The notes under the pieces: model-generated
What the model was told of the DNA's origin: nothing
Seen by the model: the letters and a program-made list of their open reading frames with translations, nothing else
Database searches by the model: none
Position numbers and translations under genes: made by a program
Part shown: piece by piece, positions 37,001 to 45,833 of the stretch
How positions within the stretch are numbered: position 1 is the first letter of the stretch
Layout of the letters: every line of letters starts with the position of its first letter
Origin: an uncultured Clostridia bacterium
Lineage (GTDB): Bacteria > Bacillota > Clostridia > UMGS1883
NCBI GenBank assembly: GCA_934454525.1
Contig: CAKSFM010000002.1
Span: 9,792-73,791 of the forward strand
DNA length: 64,000 bases
Direction: 5' to 3'

Positions 37001-37542
37001 GCATCGATTTCATTTCCGAGCGCCGTGTCCAAAAGCAGGCGTACGCTCACGTTTTCATCCCTGCCGCTTTCGTTTTTAACCTCAAACGAAAGACCGACGT
37101 TTCCAGTTATATCGCTGTCGGCATCCTGCCCGAGAGCTGCCTTGAGAGTCACGGTTATTCCCTTTATTGTCCACGGAATCGTAAGCAGTCTGCCCTCCGC
37201 GCTGACGGCAGGCGTTCCGAGCTTGGAGTCAATTCCGAAAAAGCCGTAATCCTGACCGAAAATATAGTCCTTATCCCCGACACGCACTGTTATAAAAGAT
37301 GTTCCGTTACTGTGCGTTTTGTCCTCTGCATAAAGGAGGGGAATATCGTTATCAAGCACCTTTTTCGGATTGCCCTCGGCGGTTTCGATTGCGAAACCGC
37401 CCGTATCGGCATTAAAAGTATATGTTAAATACCCGTTTGTGATGCTGTATTGTGCCGCTTCGGAAGCAAATGCAGCCGGAGCAAGCGTCAGCAGCATTGC
37501 TGCCGCAAGTATATACGACAGTAATTTTTTGCAGATATTCAT
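31024..37542 (-). CDS. Giant (2172 aa) SLH-anchored secreted protein with unknown N-terminal and central regions, Big_2, FIVAR-like and Listeria/Bacteroides-type repeats
   Basis: Signal peptide MNICKKLLSYILAAAMLLTLAPAAFASEA; RBS AGGAGG. The C-terminal part has a Big_2-like segment (LTAWAVTDDGKRI...GTLTALAIGETAVKVKL), a FIVAR-like helix pair (KQALSDAINAAKELL...YTNGVTALDNAI) and a repeat AYAVNVLPSEHGKVSV...AVPDAGYAVEDILINGK. Three SLH repeats follow (FTDVLKTDWFGEYVKYVYD..., FEDVQADAYYAKAVAWAQ..., TSYADYSEASDYAIGALAY...). Confidence 0.8.
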   Translation of the reverse strand: MNICKKLLSYILAAAMLLTLAPAAFASEAAQYSITNGYLTYTFNADTGGFAIETAEGNPKKVLDNDIPLLYAEDKTHSNGTSFITVRVGDKDYIFGQDYGFFGIDSKLGTPAVSAEGRLLTIPWTIKGITVTLKAALGQDADSDITGNVGLSFEVKNESGRDENVSVRLLLDTALGNEIDAPYFVVDTDIKPTMTESEYAGDELPQQIRCVDSLSKPSKLSYILTKGWNGGVTADRAVIGHWANMANTRYDYKPDRYCDFTNYSNDHRMPDSAAALYWENKALANGESFCGELLYGVGNFSKNADGNVGINITAGRVELADDKKSYKNDGIIDVTVEIDNTVDGAVHLTNAMIRLTVDEKEFSVIEGDAAAVHKEIGSEIVTKQYKLKAVPQAELTAGTIYVSLTATQTLADGTEADFESAAERSVILRSTEGKLPDVQMNKINPKIVYTSGEKAVTVSGKMKAFKALKENQGWDLRLIHETTGESVLIKKSNISFLDDSYENMSFSTGEELTVGNYKLVFEFTNPQLVAELGKSITCPQKLQVSADPKYKLKMYGTMALIRTTDNNKTDYDFYAFENEGDYLSFYKGSTEKTGLLHGGKIKYNFGEEKAIGKHEILLTIRANLREMTRKSGENTETYWQASYSDGDIIINNMLSYEGEKPLELFEQNGEYTVKGDGLIKVVNSINVWRSKWSFSVNKGMVTSLDGERLEKKGEYTLGSKPLQLSLDGAATMIQSVGGFLVDLKFGEMSSKWHDGGDGIVTYGIGFGGSISIPISAKKKDNKATDLTADQEDMSEELNNLFDESLTADQEDMSLEMNDLFDETPKKTSSGAKLTKDTNLSEGQLSAEINNILFGEKGDVENGAVKVDSTGFIGIDAKTTLALPKDVLGSLVANSPGIYASVTINTIENIYQLDVGVNIKVIECEGTLAFKEVKVKGKDKILPDKIEFYVRNGLKIPLAPPVLYMTGLGGGINELADTIGGQFDSLPPITILLFTRLEAIETLIGDFNARVSLEGMSLTGDMKLKFSDKLLDLNAGIYAKWIEPWELNLYGNVSIIDGLIKGGITINIADHYFYGYIFASICIPDSIPFVGGKELAGVEAAVSHEFIGANIKIIGIRFGVIYYWGDGVSFGKNIDLSAPKKGDGTQNAMMSLESGDMIGCYGTNIHQLAATPVLTNGGISLLSAERSASINVSNAAGSDALLIEIPFTGTGTPAPGEITLKTPSGKTVQTVGDDGSGGGNMLVQEREDGNFIYVTVTEADKIENGIWTVTYTTENISIGTFMMNRVDDIAEITSCTAAHASETDYNIDASWSINGGAEQSGTIDVYLTEDKDILSKIKTSANKGDSLGTNILHKDYDKISSGSEKITLPKTMPSGTYYVVTTLSTSEGISLAMAASPVKFKNPELPKPVKGAHINYGGNGNLFVKVEDADSPDYTHYIAEIVANDGTVLQNNIGQFEQGKNFVFGKEAGLEVGKTYHVNIRTLNEKYEKLGEEYKTVYYYGDDTVSSDLFTLEEKHTVMPKLESVKASFDTSKEYISQNSVTVEYTFSEPVFVELSINGGQKAYSGGQFKKDWKFTLDGLEDGDYIIDFTAYTETKNHITGSDSELADAQLGFTVDTSAPVLSLGRKTADSVEQDGSGAVKAIFGANTVLTDENGNYTIEGLTEKSVSFTVDGAETGIARGANGSFVYTGKLADGESYKQHTLCAVDNAENKSETVVSVIRKGAFSLKEIEIRNGDNEIPQSNGEKKLSVRNGHTAALTAWAVTDDGKRIRLENDAVLWNVLYGKNNVSVSDGTLTALAIGETAVKVKLKTADIELSGGDVASGGLSDYAIVEIGQNSKNDLADKISEAENVLASNPSASEDKKQALSDAINAAKELLNNPSATEEDYTNGVTALDNAISVFNRTDSRRGSSGGRAAAYAVNVLPSEHGKVSVSSSRAYSGSSVTITAVPDAGYAVEDILINGKSVGRAEIYTVQSISEDLNIQVIFGEKSDLPFTDVLKTDWFGEYVKYVYDNGLFNGVSDALFAPNTEITRAMMVTVLHRADGTPEAAASSFEDVQADAYYAKAVAWAQKNNIVLGISNEQFAPDQNITREQIAAIIYRYARYKGQDVSAAEKTDITSYADYSEASDYAIGALAYMVGSGIMKGRTDSTLNPKDYATRAEISAVMQRFLSK
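35074..35187 (-). repeat. In-frame tandem duplication (2 x 57 nt) encoding a 19-aa acidic motif
   Basis: LTADQEDMSEELNNLFDES / LTADQEDMSLEMNDLFDET (15/19 identical), inside the 2172-aa ORF. Confidence 0.85.
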
Positions 37543-37557
37543 TCCTGCTGTTCCTCC

Positions 37558-40500
37558 TTAAATATAGATATAAACCTGAAGCACAAAGTAATCGCGCTTA
37601 TCCGTCTGAAGATAGAATGTGTGCCAGCCTTCTGAAAGTCCTGTCACTGTGAAGCTGCCGTTTTCATCGCGCGGAACAACAATTTCGCTCTTTTTCATCT
37701 GCCCCATTGTTTTAAGTCCGCTCATGCGGCGAACATATACAGCCGCGCTCGGAGAAATGTTCTTAAGGCTTACAGTCACCTTACCGCCCTCAACCTCGCA
37801 TCTGCCGGACGCATCGGGAAGATTTCCATTCACGAATGCAACCGTGTCGTGCATGCCGACAAGGCGCACCGTGCGCTTAACCTCAGTGATGTTATGCGCT
37901 TTATCGGAAACCGAATAGGTGATTGTATATGGCTTTCCGGAATCAAATTTATTCTTATTTATGTCGCTCGGATCAAAGCCGCCCCAATCAATCTTAACCG
38001 TTCCGTTTAAATCAGTGCCTTTTCCGAAAGCATCGAACGCATTGAATGCAACGCCCGGCTTTTCAAGCATGTCACGGTTATACGCCTCGCCGATGGAGCT
38101 GTTTTCATAGAACACAAGCTCATTCTTTCCGAAAAGGTCAATAACCGGCGGAATCCTGTCGATAATTTCAACGTCAACGCCGTACGAATCTGTGAGAAGA
38201 TTCGACTTTTCCATGTCAAATATGTAAAGTCCGTTATCGCTGTATACCTTTTCGTTTTCCTTTGCATATTCCCCGCTGCTGCCGGCAATTCTCGTTTCGT
38301 CATCGGTAACAACCGTGACCGTAACATCCCGGTTTGTCACGGGGTTCACATCAGACGCGATAACATAGCCTGCCTTTGACGGCGTTATTGAGCCGTCACG
38401 CGTTTTTGTCTGCCATTCGCCGTTTTCAAGTTCATCGTATTCATAGCTCCATCTCACCTGCGTGATTATGGGCGCCTTTGTGTCGATATCCTTAATTTCA
38501 ATGGTCAGGAAAGCTGACGTTCCCTCATCGTCATACGTTTTGAAGGTGTAGAAACCGTTTTCGCAGAACACAAACTCTGCCGTGTCGGCTTTCTGAACAA
38601 TTCCCCCGTATGTAACCGTAACATCGCTAAGCCCGCGCCGCTTGTCGATTGCTTCGCCGGTTTCTGAATTTTTCGCCTTGTCAAACCTCACGCTGACCTC
38701 GGTTTTGTTCGGATTAGGTGTCATAACGGCTTCAAGCGCCGGGGGCGTTGTGTCAATATTTGCAACTGTCACATCGCGCACACCCTCGTTTCCGAATTCG
38801 TCTGTGAAGTATACGTCTACCGTGCCCGGCTTTGTGAATGTTATAACCGATGTTGTGTAATTTACACTGTAATCCGATTCCCGAAGCGTTCCGGACGGAT
38901 TGTACTCAATTCTCGTTATGCGCACATTCGGCTTTGAAAAGGTGAGCGATGCGCTGACCGGGCGCGAGGTTACCTTTTCCGTGCTGTACTCAACCTCTGC
39001 TGTGGGAACGGTTTTATCGATATTGCCAATGCTGAAATTCTTCGAGGTTTTATTTCCCACGCCGTCCAGCATAACAATGCTGTATACTCCGTTTTCTGTT
39101 ATGTTATACTCATAAACTCCGCCGTTTTCATTAAGCTCAGTGCTGCTGTTTGCAGAAACAAGCATAACCTTGCCGACTCCGCTCTTTTCATCCGATGCAG
39201 TTACGGTAAGTCGGATATCCTTGTTTGTTTTTCCCGTTTCGGACAAAGTGTAGCTGATTTCACCGGGTTCGCAGTCGAAATTATCGAGTGCGTCCGCGCG
39301 GACGTCCTTTGTATATCCGAACTTATCCTTTATTTTAAAGGTAAATGAACGCTCGAACGAATCAAGCTCCTTTTCAAATGAACCGTTATTGTTCAGAACG
39401 CGGATTTCACGGTCGCCGATTTCCCATCTTGTCTGGTCATCGCCGTAATCCGTTATCGGTTCAAGCACAACCTTTGCCTTTTTATAGAACGATTTTTCAT
39501 CTGCCGGATCGGCAATTTCAACCCACTCGTCATTGCTGTCCTGATAATAATACTTAAGCTTGTAATCCTTATTTTCCTCAAGCTCAAGCTTGCAGATTGC
39601 GCCCATTGTTCCGAGACCTTCCATAAAGTTAAGCATTGCCCAGGATCTGTTTCCGGACTTGTTTTCAACTTCAACAGCACGGATTCTGTGATTATCACTG
39701 AAAGTATAGCGAATCATTTTCACGCTCTTGGGGTCGGTATCTCCGTAATAATCGATTTTTACGGGAATATTGTACTGTGCGCCGTTCCAGCTCCACGGTT
39801 CTTCGCTGTGGTCTTCGTCAATCGGAGCTTCAACGAGTATCTCCGATTGCGTTTCATCGTCATCTTCTCTGAGCAGCGTGATTTTTCTGATTCCGCTCTC
39901 CGCGTCCTGTGCAGTCACATAGAACATAACCTCTCCGGCAGTGGGAATAATTCTTTCGGGGTGACCGTAATCGTCATCGCCGAACACAAATATTTCCGGC
40001 GTTACTCTTACGCTCGTTTCGGGAGGCGTGTTATCGATTCCGTCAAGCACAAGGCTCTCAAGACTCCACGTTGACGGCTCGGTATTGGTTTCATCGAATA
40101 TGTAAACCTCAATCAGTCTTTCCGTTGATTTTGCCAATTGATAATAAAACTCCGAGCTTTCATCCTCAATGGGAACTATCTTATAGACAAGCTTGGTATA
40201 TGTACTGTCGCTTGCGCCATGCTCAGATTCCTCCTCCGAGAACACAAGACCGTTCTTCGGTTTATCGCCGGTCGGAATCGGGGCAAGATTCTTGCCTGCT
40301 TTTTCGGGCGTTATGACAAGCTTCGGATAATTATCGGGATTTACAAGGCTGTAATCCGTGATGAGCGTTTCGCCGTCATATATTTCCGCCTTAAGTCCGC
40401 CGGTGGAGTTAAACTCAATTCCCTCCGCTTTCAGCCGCACAAGCTTTGTTCTGCCGATATCATCAACGGTGTAAAGCATATATTCGCCGTTATTTTCAAT

Positions 40501-43500
40501 CGTGAACGAATAATCCTGCGAATAAAATCCGCCGAGCGATTTTGCAAGAGCAAAATTTGTTTCGGTGATTTTTTCCGCTGCCGTCAGTCCGTCTGGATCA
40601 ATCAGCGTGTTGTCAGCCTGTGTTCTTATCTTATCCTGCGGAAGAACATAGACAGGCATATTGAATTTCACTTTCACAATCGACTTTTTGCCTGCTTTCA
40701 TGGGATTGAGCGTAAATTCACGCGAAAGCTCCGCGTCTTTCGGCGAAAGCGGCTCGGAGGATATTATATCAGCCGTGTTGCCGACGCTGTCCTCCGCGCG
40801 GATGCAGATAAAGTAATTTCCCGTCAGTCCGGCTGCGCGAACGCTGTAGGTCAGATTTTTTTCACCGTCCCACAATCCTTCTTCCTCGCGCGTCTGCATT
40901 ATTGTGATATTTTCATCCGCTGATTTTTCAAACAGTTTATCGTTAATTTTTCCGTTTGATATATATGTTTTGTAATCTTCCTCGCTGACAGCCGTTACCA
41001 GAACACCATCGCCCTTAACTCCGTTTACGGTGACTGTTGCCTGCGCGTCCGTTCTTGCGCCCGAAGCCGTGTGTGATATGCGAATATCCGCTGCCGGCAC
41101 TTCCCTGTCAATTCCCCTTATCGTTACGGGAATTTCTGAAGAGTTGCCTGCTGCGTCCTTTGCGCGGAGCTTTGCATTATCAACATTTTCCGTTACCGTT
41201 ATATTGAACACATTCCGTTCATTCTCAGCTTTTTCAATCTTTATTGCCGCGCTGTCAGATGTCAGCGTCAGCTCGCTGTCAAGATTATCACTGAGATAAA
41301 CTTTTCCGCTTATACTCTCGGCAGTGTGCTTATCCTCAATCACAAGTCTGGACTGCGGCGCCGTTTCATCGTGATAAAACTCAATCTCTCCCGACCAAAC
41401 CGTTTCAGCATTTATTTTGGAAGTGTTGCCGTCAGCGTCAAACACAGCCGCCTGAATATAAAGAATATTTTTCCCGTCCGAAAGGCTTGCCACGGGCGCC
41501 TTTGTGTTAATATCTGCGGTTATAACATCTCCGTTTACCGCCGCGTCACCTATCTTTACCCAGTCACCGAGCATTGAGAGGCTTTCACCGATTCGGCAGT
41601 AAATTGCCTGATTTTTCATCTTCGCTGCATTTCTGAAGTTTTCCGAAACTTTAACGGAAACCGTGATATCGGATGAAGCCGTCAGCGCTTTTTCGTTATA
41701 CTGCTTATCGGTCACGATTGAAGCCGTGATTTCGGGTTTTTCGCTCCTTATCCCGAAGCTTTCCGAAACGGCGGAGCTTTCAATTCCGTTTTTGTCGGTT
41801 GCGCGAACCTTGAGTGCATAAGCGCCGTTCGGAATACTTCCTATATTAATATTCTGCGAAATTGCTCCGTCCGCTGTTGTCAGTGCAAATTCCTCAAGTC
41901 CTTCAACAGGTGTTCCGTCAGGATTCACAACCGACGCAACCCCCTCGGTCACTCCCGAAGCGTCCGTCACAAAGACGGAAACTGTCTGAAGCGCCTTGCA
42001 GGTATCGGGCGCCAGACTGCGCGCACTTATTGCCGGCCCTTCATTGTCAAACGAGAACGGTTTTTCCGTGTAGGAAGCGCTTTTTTCACCCGACGGCGGA
42101 ATTATTTTGCATACAAGCGTGTACGCTCCGTTGAGCGCGCTTGTCGCAGCATTGTCTGCGGTGTTAATTCCGTCCGTGTATTTTACATATTTCGTTATGG
42201 GATTATTCTTCGAGTCTTTCCAGAGATACTCCACCTTATTATTGCTGTTCGTGCTTACCGTTATTTTGTAGTTACGGTGCGGAACGGATGAATCGCTTTC
42301 CGTTTCGATTCGGCAGGCAGTATCTTCATTATTAATATTTATATCGCGGACAGATTGGTCTGTTGCATTGCCGAAGCCGTCCTTTGCGAAATATATCAGC
42401 CGCCCCTTAAAGTTTTCTCCCTTTTCAACGCGGATGATTGCCGAAGCCGTGTTTCCGTTCTCCGTATCCGCCTGGTCGATAAACGCCCATCTGTTAAGCG
42501 TACTGTCAATCTCTCCGCTTGTCTGCTTCTGCGCGGTGTTTTCGTCAAATTCCGGAACATTTACAAGACTGTCCGTGAAGCAGTAGTAGAGCCGCCCTGT
42601 TTTCGAAGCGTCCGTTATCTTCACAGAATAGCTGTTGCTGCGGCTGCCGTCCTGTTTCCGCAGTCCGCACTGTTCGTCCACCGTAACATCCGGCGCTTTG
42701 TTATCAAGAAGAACGTTTTCAATCTTTTTCGAGAGCGGATTTCCTGCCGCGTCCTTGCCTGAAAATACAAGTGTGAAGCTGCCCTCAACCGCGTCGCGCA
42801 GGCGAAGCGTGATTCCGGTATCGCTGCCCTTTGTTGCGGGCACTTTCTGCGTTGCGGACGGCGAATTTTTGCCTTTATAATCATAGATTGCAACGTTTGA
42901 GCTGCCGTTTTTCAGTTCCATAACGGCGTAACCCTCCGTAGTGGTTTCTCCGCTGCCGAGCGCGGAATAGATCGTTTCGGCCGGAGTCACGGTAAGGTCT
43001 GCCGTTTTGTGCCATTTTGACAGATATTCCTCGGCGCCGCCCTCTGCCGCCGTCAGGCGAAGGTCGGGGCAAACAGCGTCAACCTTGTTGACTGAGGAAA
43101 TGCAGGAATATCCCACTTTAGCTCCGTCGCGAAGCGTTGCCGTGTTTCCGCCGAACAGCACCGGCGAAAGCGTACCTTTCAGCACAAGCTCAATGCTCTT
43201 ATTCTGCGAATCCGCTTTTTCGTCATACGGGAACGTCAGCTTAAATGTGTTTCCGTATATTGTCAGTCTTTTATCCCGCGCTTCAAGCCTTTTTGAAGCG
43301 TCACCCAGTGCAATATATGCCTCCGAAAAAATCAGCTTCGCTCCGTAAAGATTATCCTCTGCGGAAAGATGATCGTTGTTTCCGCCCGTCTTTATCGTTC
43401 CCGTAACTGTAATGCTTCTTGTTCCATCGGCATTTTTGATTGTATTGTTATAGAAATTGTTGTCATCATTATATTTTTTGTCTGTTGTTGACGGAACATA

Positions 43501-44469
43501 TTTGTTCGTGCTGAACGACACGCTTTCAATCTCGAACGCCTTGCGGACAAATGTTATCTCCTTCGTATACTTATCGGGAGATTTTTTTGTTCTGACCGTT
43601 CCATCGGGAAAGCCGAGCGTTGCGCTCACGGTTATTCTGTTAACGCCGTTTTTGTTCATATATGCCGCAAGAGCGTTTTTCTCCGCCTTGAGGCCCGTAT
43701 CCCCGAAAGTGAAGCCGGCGTTTGTCTGAAGATCCTTCTGATTAACCGTTCCGCCGTCCTTTTTCTGCCCCGAAAATGCATATGTAATTGTCGGCGGCGC
43801 GCTCAGATCCAGACAGTAATATTTCTCTCCGATAGGGCTGTCTGTTACCACACGCACATACTGGTCTCTCACATAACCGTCGTATTTCAGCTCATATGTG
43901 CCGGAATCGCTTCCCGAATCGCTCACATAAACCGTAGCCGGGTCGGTAGTAAAGTTACCGGTTTTCTCTATCACGCGCTCGGGCCAGAAAACATATATGA
44001 GCCTTGTCTGCTTATGGTCGTCTGTGTCGAGCCATTTTCCGTCATTCTTGCCCATTCCGTTCGGATAGTTTCTATCAAAGAGGGCTTCATTATAGCCATA
44101 CTCGGGAGCGCTTTTTTTCGAGCGGCGCACCCACATGTAATATGACCTTATCTTAACCGCGTCCTTATGGTTATTCTCAAAGGTGATTGTATCAAGCGTC
44201 CACGGTGCACGCGTTGACTGATACTCGGTTCTCGTTTCCGTTCCTTTTTTGTTTACGCCCTGAACGTTGAAAACCTCGTAATCCTTCCCGAAGCGCATGT
44301 GACACTGCACATTGTTTTTTCCCGTTGCAGAATCCTTTGCATTGCTGACTTCGAATCCGAGAGTGTACACCCACACATACTCTTCCGCCGCAGCGGCAGG
44401 TATGCCGGCGAGCATTGACGCAAGCATGCAAAGCGCCATCGCCATGCTCATAATTCTTCTTCGCCTCAT
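37558..44469 (-). CDS. Giant (2303 aa) secreted protein: PLAT/LH2-like N-terminal domain followed by many Ig-like domains; no recognisable wall anchor
   Basis: Signal-like N-terminus MRRRRIMSMAMALCMLASMLAGIPAAAAEE. At least 9 domain boundaries have the form (I/L)D-x-x-(A/P)P (DNKAPDV, DNEGPAI, DETAPQS, DREVPAA, DNTPPET, DKTVPTA, DTTPPAL, DTKAPII, DRIPPVI). A DUF5011-like segment lies near the C-terminus. No LPXTG or SLH. The ATG overlaps the TetR stop (ATGA). Confidence 0.8.
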   Translation of the reverse strand: MRRRRIMSMAMALCMLASMLAGIPAAAAEEYVWVYTLGFEVSNAKDSATGKNNVQCHMRFGKDYEVFNVQGVNKKGTETRTEYQSTRAPWTLDTITFENNHKDAVKIRSYYMWVRRSKKSAPEYGYNEALFDRNYPNGMGKNDGKWLDTDDHKQTRLIYVFWPERVIEKTGNFTTDPATVYVSDSGSDSGTYELKYDGYVRDQYVRVVTDSPIGEKYYCLDLSAPPTITYAFSGQKKDGGTVNQKDLQTNAGFTFGDTGLKAEKNALAAYMNKNGVNRITVSATLGFPDGTVRTKKSPDKYTKEITFVRKAFEIESVSFSTNKYVPSTTDKKYNDDNNFYNNTIKNADGTRSITVTGTIKTGGNNDHLSAEDNLYGAKLIFSEAYIALGDASKRLEARDKRLTIYGNTFKLTFPYDEKADSQNKSIELVLKGTLSPVLFGGNTATLRDGAKVGYSCISSVNKVDAVCPDLRLTAAEGGAEEYLSKWHKTADLTVTPAETIYSALGSGETTTEGYAVMELKNGSSNVAIYDYKGKNSPSATQKVPATKGSDTGITLRLRDAVEGSFTLVFSGKDAAGNPLSKKIENVLLDNKAPDVTVDEQCGLRKQDGSRSNSYSVKITDASKTGRLYYCFTDSLVNVPEFDENTAQKQTSGEIDSTLNRWAFIDQADTENGNTASAIIRVEKGENFKGRLIYFAKDGFGNATDQSVRDININNEDTACRIETESDSSVPHRNYKITVSTNSNNKVEYLWKDSKNNPITKYVKYTDGINTADNAATSALNGAYTLVCKIIPPSGEKSASYTEKPFSFDNEGPAISARSLAPDTCKALQTVSVFVTDASGVTEGVASVVNPDGTPVEGLEEFALTTADGAISQNINIGSIPNGAYALKVRATDKNGIESSAVSESFGIRSEKPEITASIVTDKQYNEKALTASSDITVSVKVSENFRNAAKMKNQAIYCRIGESLSMLGDWVKIGDAAVNGDVITADINTKAPVASLSDGKNILYIQAAVFDADGNTSKINAETVWSGEIEFYHDETAPQSRLVIEDKHTAESISGKVYLSDNLDSELTLTSDSAAIKIEKAENERNVFNITVTENVDNAKLRAKDAAGNSSEIPVTIRGIDREVPAADIRISHTASGARTDAQATVTVNGVKGDGVLVTAVSEEDYKTYISNGKINDKLFEKSADENITIMQTREEEGLWDGEKNLTYSVRAAGLTGNYFICIRAEDSVGNTADIISSEPLSPKDAELSREFTLNPMKAGKKSIVKVKFNMPVYVLPQDKIRTQADNTLIDPDGLTAAEKITETNFALAKSLGGFYSQDYSFTIENNGEYMLYTVDDIGRTKLVRLKAEGIEFNSTGGLKAEIYDGETLITDYSLVNPDNYPKLVITPEKAGKNLAPIPTGDKPKNGLVFSEEESEHGASDSTYTKLVYKIVPIEDESSEFYYQLAKSTERLIEVYIFDETNTEPSTWSLESLVLDGIDNTPPETSVRVTPEIFVFGDDDYGHPERIIPTAGEVMFYVTAQDAESGIRKITLLREDDDETQSEILVEAPIDEDHSEEPWSWNGAQYNIPVKIDYYGDTDPKSVKMIRYTFSDNHRIRAVEVENKSGNRSWAMLNFMEGLGTMGAICKLELEENKDYKLKYYYQDSNDEWVEIADPADEKSFYKKAKVVLEPITDYGDDQTRWEIGDREIRVLNNNGSFEKELDSFERSFTFKIKDKFGYTKDVRADALDNFDCEPGEISYTLSETGKTNKDIRLTVTASDEKSGVGKVMLVSANSSTELNENGGVYEYNITENGVYSIVMLDGVGNKTSKNFSIGNIDKTVPTAEVEYSTEKVTSRPVSASLTFSKPNVRITRIEYNPSGTLRESDYSVNYTTSVITFTKPGTVDVYFTDEFGNEGVRDVTVANIDTTPPALEAVMTPNPNKTEVSVRFDKAKNSETGEAIDKRRGLSDVTVTYGGIVQKADTAEFVFCENGFYTFKTYDDEGTSAFLTIEIKDIDTKAPIITQVRWSYEYDELENGEWQTKTRDGSITPSKAGYVIASDVNPVTNRDVTVTVVTDDETRIAGSSGEYAKENEKVYSDNGLYIFDMEKSNLLTDSYGVDVEIIDRIPPVIDLFGKNELVFYENSSIGEAYNRDMLEKPGVAFNAFDAFGKGTDLNGTVKIDWGGFDPSDINKNKFDSGKPYTITYSVSDKAHNITEVKRTVRLVGMHDTVAFVNGNLPDASGRCEVEGGKVTVSLKNISPSAAVYVRRMSGLKTMGQMKKSEIVVPRDENGSFTVTGLSEGWHTFYLQTDKRDYFVLQVYIYI

Positions 44470-45068
44470 AACATTGCCTCCAATTCTTCCATATTATTAT
44501 TTTTATTCTCTTTAAGAACTGCAAATACCGAAAGCTTAAGCGCTTTCATTTCCGATTCAAGATAATACTTGTCTTCAAACAATGCATAATGCACCGCCGC
44601 ACGCACAAACAAAAATATAAAACCTGTAAGAATATCCTCCGGAATCCCCAGAATCGGCGAAAGTCTTTGTGCATACTCTGTGTATCTCCGGCTCACACCC
44701 TCAACAAATTTCTTTCCATGCTCAATGTATTTCGGATGCGTGTAAACCTGGTACATAAGCCTGTATTTTTTCCCGTGCTTCTGCGCCGTCCAGTAAGGAA
44801 TTTCTTCGATAAACCTAAGAATATCCATTGGGTTTTTCGGCGCAAGCTCCATAAAGTCGTCCTCAACCTTTGCCATGCAATATTCGGTTGACTGCGTTAT
44901 AAGATCGTCAACATTGTCAAAATACCCGTACAGATTTGCCGATGTCATGCCGCAATATTTTCCAAGCTCCTTTATCCCCGTATCGCGCAGTCCGTTATCG
45001 CAGTAACATTCAAAGCATTTCATCATTATCTCTTTCTTTTTTTCCTCGCGGTATTTGGGACTTCGCAT
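44466..45068 (-). CDS. TetR/AcrR-family transcriptional regulator
   Basis: N-terminal HTH FECYCDNGLRDTGIKELGKYCGMTSANLYGYF with an all-helical C-terminal domain, 200 aa, RBS AGAGGTGA. Confidence 0.8.
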   Translation of the reverse strand: MRSPKYREEKKKEIMMKCFECYCDNGLRDTGIKELGKYCGMTSANLYGYFDNVDDLITQSTEYCMAKVEDDFMELAPKNPMDILRFIEEIPYWTAQKHGKKYRLMYQVYTHPKYIEHGKKFVEGVSRRYTEYAQRLSPILGIPEDILTGFIFLFVRAAVHYALFEDKYYLESEMKALKLSVFAVLKENKNNNMEELEAML

Positions 45069-45084
45069 TAAATCACCTCTTTAA

Positions 45085-45102
45085 TTACTGATTGATAAGT
45101 AA
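45085..45102. promoter_or_regulatory. Candidate TetR operator (imperfect 18-bp palindrome between -10 and RBS)
   Basis: ttactgat-tg-ataagtaa: 8-bp half-sites matching 7/8, placed between the -10 (45103-45108) and the RBS. Confidence 0.35.
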
Positions 45103-45131
45103 ATTATAACACGCACTTTCCGAATAAGCAA
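45103..45131 (-). promoter_or_regulatory. Strong candidate sigma-A promoter of the TetR/giant-protein operon
   Basis: Minus strand TTGCTT (45131-45126), 17-nt spacer, TGT-TATAAT extended -10 (45111-45103). Confidence 0.65.
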
Positions 45132-45264
45132 TAGAAAAAAGAAAAAATTTTTAGTTTTTTTGACAAAATCAAAAGTCGCCGATGAGGCTCTGTTCAGTGA
45201 ATCCAAAGTGCAAAAATGCAACAGGCATATTGCCGATGTTCTGAACGGACAAAATTTCACAAGG

Positions 45265-45485
45265 TAAAGCCACAACCCGATAAGGAAGTATTGGTTTTGA
45301 AAGCCGTTCTTTAAATCTTAAATTCCGACCTTCAAAACTGCTTTGCACCCTGTAAACAATATTTTTTGATGAAGTTCAAGGCAAAAAAGCGAGTAATCCT
45401 GTCGGATTCCGAGCCTTTTTTAACGCAGAAATTCGCAAAAAAGATGTTTAGCAGGGCAATACTTCCTTATCGGGCTGTGGCTAAA
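45265..45485. mobile_element. 213-bp segment bounded by 25-bp inverted repeats and flanked by TAAA/TAAA (MITE-like; an invertible segment is the alternative)
   Basis: IR-L gccacaacccgataaggaagtattg (45269-45293). IR-R caatacttccttatcgggctgtggc (45457-45481). The two are complementary at 24/25 positions. TAAA sits at 45265-45268 and 45482-45485. Confidence 0.6.
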
Positions 45486-45504
45486 TATGCCGCACAACAG
45501 CAAA

Positions 45505-45833
45505 AGGGATTCCGTAATTTTTTTGCGGAATCCCTCAGCGTGTCGATAAACCTATCGACACGCTGGCAGACGTTGAAAAAGGAAGGTAAATCTGTTCGGC
45601 ACGCACTCGTCGGCGTACAAAGGTACGTTAGAGGGTGTGCCGGACGGAAACAAGCAAAAACCCCCTAAATTTCGGGGATTGACAGTTGATACAAACCAAT
45701 ATCAGATTTGATTGCAGTTTGATTTTGAATCAAAAATTCTTTAAAATTAATGTGATAAAACTTATAGCTTGCTTGTGGTTGACCGACTTTTTCGACAGTC
45801 TGAGGGATTCCGCAATTTTTTTGCGGAATCCCT
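45505..45833 (+). repeat. 265-bp repeat family, copy 2: 267-bp core (45536-45802) flanked by a 31-bp direct duplication of a hairpin
   Basis: Flanks agggattccgTaatttttttgcggaatccct (45505-45535) and agggattccgCaatttttttgcggaatccct (45803-45833), 30/31 identical. The core has the same termini as copy 1 (cagcgtgtcgata...tcgacagtctg). Confidence 0.85.

Follow-up and report, generated by a model that had tools for sequence, protein, structure and literature searches.

A stretch of 64,000 nucleotides from an uncultured Clostridia bacterium (contig CAKSFM010000002.1; "the window" denotes this whole stretch) carries a repeat of 267 bp and a second copy of it, each held between two copies of a strong hairpin that differs from one site to the other. 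The locus raises the question of whether repeat and hairpins together form a structured RNA or whether they record the arrival of a mobile element, and an earlier note on this DNA had entertained both selection on a plus-strand RNA fold and a non-autonomous transposon. Our analysis indicates that the repeat is very probably a non-coding MITE (a miniature transposable element with inverted repeats) of the IS1182 family of insertion sequences (ISs), which inserts into terminator hairpins with the hairpin copied to both sides. The transposon proposal is borne out by many copies, imperfect inverted repeats, site-specific duplications and a match to the anatomy of autonomous IS1182 elements. We regard this as a new MITE family within a known IS family that has hairpin targeting on record, and not as a new class of element; it would explain a widespread, unannotated repeat of gut and rumen Clostridia.

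Copies, ends and duplicated hairpins

The two copies in the window lie in the same orientation, and their features are as follows.

30592..30612: left target-site duplication of copy 1, 21-bp palindrome ACAAAAGCCGTTAGGCTTTTG
30613..30874, + strand: MITE copy 1, 262 bp, same orientation as copy 2
30875..30895: right target-site duplication of copy 1, 21-bp palindrome ACAAAAGCCGTTAGGCTTTTG
45505..45535: left target-site duplication of copy 2, 31-bp palindromic terminator-like hairpin AGGGATTCCGT AATTTTTTT GCGGAATCCCT
45536..45802, + strand: MITE copy 2, 267 bp, very probably a non-autonomous IS1182-family element; no conserved open reading frame (ORF)
45803..45833: right target-site duplication of copy 2, AGGGATTCCGC AATTTTTTT GCGGAATCCCT

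Both copies start with CAGCGTGTCGATAA and finish with TTTTTCGACAGTCTG, as had been read from the letters alone. The last 14-16 nt, ending ...TTTTTCGACAGTCTG, constitute the right inverted repeat; when its 14-nt form TTTTCGACAGTCTG (reverse complement CAGACTGTCGAAAA) is set against CAGCGTGTCGATAA, 11 of 14 positions are complementary. The doubling of a 31-bp flank around copy 2, AGGGATTCCG(T/C)AATTTTTTTGCGGAATCCCT, was reproduced with 30/31 identity between 45505-45535 and 45803-45833, and this flank is a perfect palindrome with an 11-bp stem. It is unrelated to the 21-bp palindrome ACAAAAGCCGTTAGGCTTTTG around copy 1, again as noted before, and the difference reflects different landing sites. 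Identity between the copies is 86.1% over the whole core and mosaic along it: the conserved ends hold as described (96.0% in the opening 125 nt and 100% in the final 34), and the middle (108 columns), put at 60-65% in the earlier note, is better conserved than that, at 70.4%.

Further copies, which the transposon proposal had left to be found, exist in abundance. One genome per species was scanned with the 11-nt termini as sole anchors and a gap of 225-255 nt between them, and the family-wide counts (109 distinct elements, 110 with enough flank) are among the matches listed. The scan gave at least 112 loci, nearly all in metagenome-assembled genomes (MAGs) of Clostridia; about six of the loci are chance matches in GC-rich non-Clostridia. 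More than 100 loci carry the same ends, at unrelated intergenic sites across many genera. The genuine carriers belong to the Clostridia of gut and rumen, namely Oscillospiraceae, Acutalibacteraceae, Eubacteriales and one isolate of Flavonifractor, and a single genome may have several copies (at least six in MAG SVJW01, at least five in MAG JAZPZD01). The 109 distinct elements measure 247-277 bp and fall into 36 clusters at 80% identity.

No conserved ORF was found in these elements, where the longest reading frame per element has a median length of 43 aa and frames are inconsistent, and none encodes a DUF772, DDE_Tnp_1 or DDE_Tnp_1_6 transposase, as expected of a MITE. Small size, lack of a transposase gene, inverted repeats, site-specific duplications and multiple copies are among the features that define a MITE, and these are present here. 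A small protein gene was rejected as a candidate on the inconsistent frames and on indels that are not multiples of three. The window and ten other loci gave no Rfam match at gathering or permissive thresholds, and BLAST of the MITE against plasmids and phages returned nothing relevant.

A gapless direct duplication of 21-37 bp, unique to its site, flanks 72 of the 110 copies, and further copies have a duplication with an indel or an inverted loop. In the gapless set of at least 15 bp (n = 71), the duplications have a mean length of 26.7 bp and a mean hairpin energy of −15.8 kcal/mol; A is the opening base of 61 and T the closing base of 60, and an A-tract upstream and/or a T-tract downstream accompanies 67. 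When the flanks are rejoined through one copy of the duplication, the layout of an intrinsic terminator appears, namely an A-tract, a GC-rich stem-loop and a T-tract, with no sequence common to the targets of different sites. The elements lie at gene 3′ ends, with stop codons some 25-45 nt away, and their neighbouring genes are convergent in 35 cases, co-directional in 17 + 17 and divergent in four. Site-specific duplication, terminator layout and location at gene 3′ ends together argue that the duplicated hairpins are pre-existing terminators that were doubled on insertion. No orientation bias was found relative to transcription (17 vs 17) or to flanking GC skew (49 vs 50), so the target is read symmetrically. 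A flank hairpin is therefore not a part of the structured unit but a duplicated target; the otherwise odd doubled hairpins would be the signature of IS1182-type insertion into terminators.

In three loci the two hairpin copies differ by inversion of the loop only (L049, GAAT vs ATTC; L064; L031), apparently because one of them was flipped in the course of insertion or later. A CRISPR-like or integron attC array was considered and rejected, as the flanks are pairwise and site-specific and form no array.

It is highly improbable that the repeat is instead immobile, a non-coding RNA gene or regulatory element that the host maintains in place between two terminators. Such an element would account for the strong structure and covariation described below, and for the lack of presence/absence polymorphism among conspecific contigs. 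It would not account for more than 100 copies at unrelated sites, several to a genome, each with a flanking duplication of its own, nor for terminal inverted repeats shared with IS1182 elements; moreover, contigs break or rearrange at the copies, and a sister species lacks copy 1.

Autonomous relatives and the choice of target

Relatives were reached with the IS1272 transposase from a staphylococcal plasmid as a tblastn probe, which brought up an element of the IS1182 family carried by a Clostridium sporogenes plasmid. The autonomous elements with whole-hairpin duplications are listed below.

Clostridium sporogenes plasmid IS: left end CAGGCTGTTGATAAA...TTTGTCAACAGCCT, read as CAGGCTGTTGATAAACATATTTTGTCAACAGCCT, a terminal hairpin; right end ...TTGAACAATCTG; 29-bp duplication GAGCATGTGTTTTAAATTAACACTTGCTC with an A-run before and a T-run after
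P0120 IS (transposase with DUF772, DDE_Tnp_1 and DDE_Tnp_1_6): four sites with hairpin duplications of 17, 13, 20 and 21 bp
Bacillus subtilis plasmid IS: 19-bp duplication; left end CAGGCTGTCGAGAAAATCTCGACAGCCT
ISBma2 (Burkholderia): 22-bp duplication
Providencia IS: 28-bp duplication; right end ...TTCGTCAGCAGTCTG
L158 IS: 17-bp duplication

These nine sites of six elements thus carry duplications of whole hairpins of 13-29 bp, compatible with the range of 0-60 bp that the ISfinder family table gives for IS1182 direct repeats. The transposases have the Pfam domains DUF772, DDE_Tnp_1 and DDE_Tnp_1_6. At the left, the end consensus of the family is CAGnnTGnnGAnAA, and at the right it is ...CAGTCTG or ...AATCTG; right ends of autonomous members read ...CAGCAGTCTG, ...CAACAGTCTG or ...ACAATCTG. 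A left terminal hairpin is usual, and one homologous to that of the MITE (P1, below) is present in L136, L137-140, L149 and L158. The MITE ends fit this type, with its CAG...CTG termini, TGnnGA core and left terminal hairpin, when compared with L136, L137-140, L149, L150, L151 and L158. The shared consensus CAGnnTGnnGAnAA ... CAGTCTG places the window element as a MITE of the ISBma2/ISCno1-like clade, members of which likewise have a left terminal hairpin in Bacillota and duplicate the whole stem-loop of terminators built of A-tract, stem-loop and T-tract. Because autonomous elements share this anatomy, the flank hairpins of the MITE are read as target-site duplications and not as parts of an RNA. 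The MITE differs from its autonomous relatives in its length of 262-267 bp, the lack of a transposase, a third inverted-repeat-like unit (nt 32-46) and a covarying, strand-specific interior.

The transposase gene of the C. sporogenes element (L136:1381-2774), annotated as one coding sequence, reads as two ORFs of 198 aa and 248 aa in different frames, and is either a frameshifted pseudogene or subject to programmed frameshifting.

The search for a direct parent gave a series of negative results. tblastn with an IS1182 transposase found nothing in the window or the collected loci, and three more IS1182 transposases led to elements of like anatomy whose ends are not those of the MITE. Across the 115 loci there were no paired MITE ends 0.4-4 kb apart. 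Recurrent neighbouring proteins were absent too, among them any HUH or DEDD gene recurring near the copies. A scan of viral contigs for the left hairpin returned chance matches and one solo hairpin, and in a metagenome scan, a search for that hairpin with a T-run after it returned two solo hairpins and no IS. As the exact parent was not found, the family assignment rests on the end consensus and on identical target behaviour.

Five observations weigh against reading the repeat as an IS1182 MITE of this kind. The exact ends CAGCGTGTCGA/TCGACAGTCTG were not seen on any autonomous IS, whether in the 115 loci, among viral contigs, plasmids and phages or in one metagenome scan, and an nhmmer profile search detected no significant similarity between the MITE interior and the available IS copies. 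No clean empty site was found either, every conspecific contig carrying both copies. Copy 1 is missing from a sister species (kinase 89% identical), but the hairpin and a further 100 nt or so are missing with it, so that the boundaries are not clean. About 14 of the 110 copies (L001, L006, L009, L011, L029, L034, L042, L055, L063, L065, L071, L084, L092 and L108) have different hairpins on their two sides and need a secondary explanation. Finally, an interior with such strong covariation and strand specificity is not what a passive MITE of the DDE type would lead one to expect.

Mismatched flanks occur likewise at two autonomous IS loci (L141 and L160). The best explanation is recombination of copies with one another or assembly through repeats; insertion between adjacent terminators is a further possible cause. 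Whereas L002 and L003 have the same two 31-bp hairpin copies as copy 2 of the window, L001 keeps the right one and carries a different hairpin on the other side, and its far flank and downstream genes differ from those of the window. With regard to empty sites, contigs bearing the window's GAPDH, histidine kinase and 200-aa protein genes are all filled or rearranged, BLAST of in-silico empty sites against all collected loci gave no empty allele, and the contig with the orthologue of the LytR-like gene stops inside GAPDH.

In the sister-species comparison (L152/L153/L156), the window has a surplus of 382 nt within 30514-30953, between the kinase promoter and its start codon. The surplus comprises hairpin, MITE and hairpin together with roughly 100 nt. 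At its boundaries lies a near-duplicate, ATGATA(A/T)AATAAATA, and within it the target hairpin is enclosed by an outer inverted repeat, AATAAATACAA/TTGTATTTATT.

Insertion into stem-loops has precedents both inside and outside the IS1182 family. IS231/MIC231 reportedly prefers terminator-like stem-loops, as the window family does; its duplication is of a fixed 10-12 bp and its ends are not those of the MITE. In a passage of PMC4923244 that cites Siguier 2015, some IS1182 members are stated to target palindromes. Within the family, staphylococcal IS1272 and TnSha1 target hairpins, many of them confirmed terminators, without primary-sequence specificity, with breaks located in the stem or at it (PMC4923244, PMC5678879). 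With IS1272 the hairpin is deleted or replaced and no target duplication arises, whereas the MITE family duplicates it intact; IS1272 would break at the same places as the MITE, but with loss of the hairpin. Its terminal repeat, seen in the right end in L135 (AGAGTCCGGGACATAAAG), is unrelated in sequence to the MITE ends. Classical bacterial MITEs (Correia/NEMIS, RUP, ERIC, MITEAba12) are short, non-coding, intergenic, multi-copy elements with inverted repeats that move by trans mobilisation and can fold as single strands (PMC3184786, PMC6382973). The window family shares their size class, lack of coding content, inverted repeats, copy number and intergenic location. In contrast to their short fixed duplications (2-9 bp) and a structure that is essentially inverted-repeat pairing, it has structure-defined duplications of variable length (21-37 bp) and a multi-helix junction with compensatory changes. 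The literature search found no published description of an IS1182-derived MITE.

A mobile element of another kind, such as an IS200/IS605-derived palindrome-associated element, a REPIN, a group IIC intron remnant or an IS110/IS1111-type element, is very improbable as the source of the repeat. Terminal or subterminal hairpins and a preference for hairpin targets are described for such systems too (PMC7290912, PMC3337134, PMC7923331, PMC11187229), among them a preference of group IIC introns for terminator-like stem-loops (PMC7923331). However, a long target duplication is absent from those systems and is the rule here; no ribozyme or intron model matched, no target sequence is shared that a guide RNA could read, and no HUH or DEDD gene recurs nearby. 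Group IIC introns in particular are ribozyme retroelements that insert after the hairpin without duplication, with ends that are not those of the MITE.

Several candidates were also rejected individually. A group II or group I intron was set aside on the missing ribozyme match and the presence of a duplication. A retron or diversity-generating retroelement was set aside because no reverse transcriptase lies nearby and the copy differences are not adenine-specific. An IS200/IS605-type element or REPIN, which would make no duplication and use a short fixed sequence, does not agree with long duplications as the rule and targets without common sequence.

For the IS1182 MITE that we favour, the following course of insertion may be proposed. 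An IS1182-type DDE transposase encoded elsewhere would recognise the imperfect inverted repeats CAGCGTGTCGATAA ... TTTTCGACAGTCTG and move the element, with integration aimed at the structure or symmetry of the target, the palindromic stem-loop of an intrinsic terminator, and not at its sequence. Two strand transfers would take place at the two feet of the palindrome, on opposite strands and usually just 5′ of an A on each, 21-37 bp apart, and repair of the two resulting single-stranded gaps would double the whole stem-loop and leave a complete terminator hairpin on each side. The target may be extruded as a hairpin or cruciform during the attack. A stagger that tracks the stem over 21-37 bp would be natural for an extruded target, because its two feet are then adjacent, and is hard to reconcile with a fixed B-DNA geometry. 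The upstream gene would still be terminated, both neighbours would keep a terminator and the MITE would be insulated from read-through, which plausibly is why copies accumulate at gene 3′ ends, convergent ones among them. The family would thereby exemplify insertion that leaves the termination of neighbouring genes undisturbed, and its roughly 100 natural insertion sites can be used to study how a transposase recognises DNA structure over sequence.

A covarying, strand-specific fold

The core of copy 2 folds as plus-strand RNA with an energy of −104.8 kcal/mol (z = −9.1 against dinucleotide shuffles), compared with −83.5 kcal/mol for the minus strand. This z value and the same architecture at more than 100 loci show that the feature is not due to chance. 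A consensus fold was calculated with RNAalifold from 28 diverse members of the main type, and its parts lie in copy 2 as follows.

45536..45565, + strand: P1, 5′ terminal hairpin, formed by the left inverted repeat and an inverted copy of it (45536-45547 / 45554-45565)
45567..45590, + strand: 5′ strands of P2 (45567-45581) and P2b (45585-45590), which pair with the MITE 3′ end; the AAAGGAAGG motif lies here
45591-45608 / 45631-45648, + strand: P3, long hairpin that includes the nested stem, with an apical GTAC-N4-GTAC stem at 45614-45618 / 45623-45627
45650..45657, + strand: 5′ strand of P4, ACAAGCAA, which pairs with 45769-45776, TTGCTTGT
45658..45768, + strand: variable middle with subfamily-specific local hairpins
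45769..45802, + strand: 3′ strands of P4 (45769-45776), P2b (45779-45784) and P2 (45787-45802), 100% identical to copy 1

The plus-strand consensus has 58 pairs, with 96.8% of cells paired compared with 88.2% in shuffles. Both sides have changed in 24 pairs, a number reached by 0/500 shuffles, and the covariation score is 0.314, as against 0.153 for shuffled alignments and at most 0.082 for slid partners. Covariation in this larger alignment of 28 copies therefore lies well above both controls. For the two window copies, the substitutions that had first suggested a fold were re-read as described: in the nested stem (45597-45608 / 45631-45642) an A·C becomes A-T, an A-T becomes G·T and the third change falls at an unpaired position, and the 5′ hairpins differ in the loop alone (AGC vs AACC).

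P1 is paired in 100% of cells, its non-Watson-Crick cells being exclusively G·U, and helices 2-4 are 97-99% paired, with compensatory AU/GC/UA changes in P2b. In P3, both sides have changed in 10/15 pairs of helix 5 and 3/5 pairs of helix 6, with apical variants GTAC/GTAC, GTAT/ATAC and GCAC/GTGC. P4 (helix 7) shows such changes in 7/8 pairs (e.g. GC:16 / AU:11), and the long-range helices P2b and P4 are among those best supported by covariation. The pairing of MITE nt 32-55 with the 3′ end (P2 and P2b) involves the third inverted-repeat-like unit, and even in the variable middle one local hairpin (alignment A3 columns 173-206) has many compensatory changes.

A ribosome-binding-site-like motif, AAAGGAAGG, is found at 45578-45586 (MITE nt 43-51), conserved in the main subfamilies and partly buried in P2. 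No conserved start codon or ORF follows it.

The fold is also asymmetric between strands. Non-Watson-Crick cells on the plus strand are G·T in 93 cases and A·C in 13, and this large excess of G·T makes the fold specific to the plus strand. RNAalifold assigns −65.4 kcal/mol and 58 pairs to the plus strand, and −39.1 kcal/mol and 43 pairs, a subset of the former, to the minus strand; in 102/109 elements the plus strand is the more stable one, and the MITE has an intrinsic G>C skew independent of genomic orientation. Folding with DNA parameters yields the same architecture (z = −7.7). Of the suggested selection on a plus-strand RNA fold, the plus-strand fold is thus upheld by covariation and strand asymmetry, and the identity of the folded molecule as RNA is not; it may be RNA or single-stranded DNA.

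These data bear on two accounts of what the fold is for. The first, that the MITE doubles as a structured-RNA gene, appears unlikely; here the plus strand would be transcribed, the fold would function as RNA (for example as a small RNA directed at the host, or in IS1182 transposition as cofactor or regulator) and the duplicated downstream hairpin would serve as its terminator. The pairing and compensatory changes, the G·U excess, the greater stability of the plus strand and its intrinsic skew all agree with such a gene, as does the fact that the plus strand corresponds to the sense strand of the transposase gene in autonomous relatives. However, the fold includes every position from the first nucleotide to the last, which places the whole folded molecule beyond the reach of any internal promoter, and the upstream flank is different at every site. 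Scanning for promoters around the two window copies yielded only weak matches to the consensus, near shuffle expectation and at positions that differ between the copies; with no internal promoter possible, this disfavours a self-contained RNA gene. The MITE moreover lies between two terminators, is unbiased with respect to neighbouring gene orientation, and has no Rfam family.

The second account, a tentative one, assigns the fold to a single-stranded DNA form (the excised or replicated top strand, or an extruded multi-branched cruciform) that would bring the ends of a very short transposon together for synapsis by the transposase. Here the DNA-parameter fold is in agreement, P2 puts the 3′ end beside the 5′ terminal hairpin, the transposase of the clade evidently acts on hairpin-forming target DNA, and the left end of the IS is itself a hairpin. 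Against this, a 7:1 excess of G·T over A·C is not expected from a double-stranded cruciform, and random orientation relative to replication-linked skew argues against exposure of one strand at forks. To our knowledge, single-stranded intermediates are not known for DDE transposases of this type.

Returning to the MITE itself, its plus-strand fold, with the 5′ hairpin, the 3′ end paired with nt 32-46, P3 and P4, probably matters for a single-stranded form of the element. It is conceivable, though we hold it with considerable reserve, that IS1182-type elements choose their sites by DNA shape (the foot of an extruded hairpin or cruciform) and that this MITE family depends on its own folded single-stranded form, as plus-strand RNA or single-stranded DNA, with the GTAC-N4-GTAC hairpin and the long-range helices. 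If so, it would be a "safe-harbour" transposon guided by structure, in which a nucleic-acid fold is a working part, and we know of no earlier description of a fold in that capacity in a DDE transposon. The strand-specific conserved fold in any case raises the question of a single-stranded or RNA component in IS1182 transposition. Overall, we consider the family to be of moderate interest, for its structure-defined terminator duplications of variable length and for the unexpectedly strong strand-specific covariation inside a MITE.

Solo hairpins and surroundings of the window copies

The left-end hairpin, CAGCGTGTCGA-loop-TCGACACGCTG, also stands alone, without the rest of the element, at L132:5798-5827, L147:3047-3079 and L148:1715-1746. 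A T-run comes next in L147 and L148, and in L148 the hairpin directly follows another one. These solo hairpins may be chance terminators, footprints or minimal elements.

A second MITE-like repeat adjoins copy 2 at 45268-45482, with 26-nt terminal inverted repeats AGCCACAACCCGATAAGGAAGTATTG of 96% complementarity, separated by 163 nt. Exactly at the outer edge of this repeat the upstream context switches in L122, and several metagenome contigs stop there.

Copies of the family mark recombination and assembly break points, and in the window they flank a block of giant surface-protein genes. The directly oriented pair (30613-45802) encloses 14.6 kb with genes for surface (SLH-type) proteins of 2172 aa and 2303 aa and a 200-aa gene. 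In place of this block, the sister species has a nicotinamide mononucleotide (NMN)-transporter gene beside the histidine kinase, and in L001 a GH28 gene lies downstream of copy 2. This context suggests recombination between the MITE copies, or mobilisation of the block.

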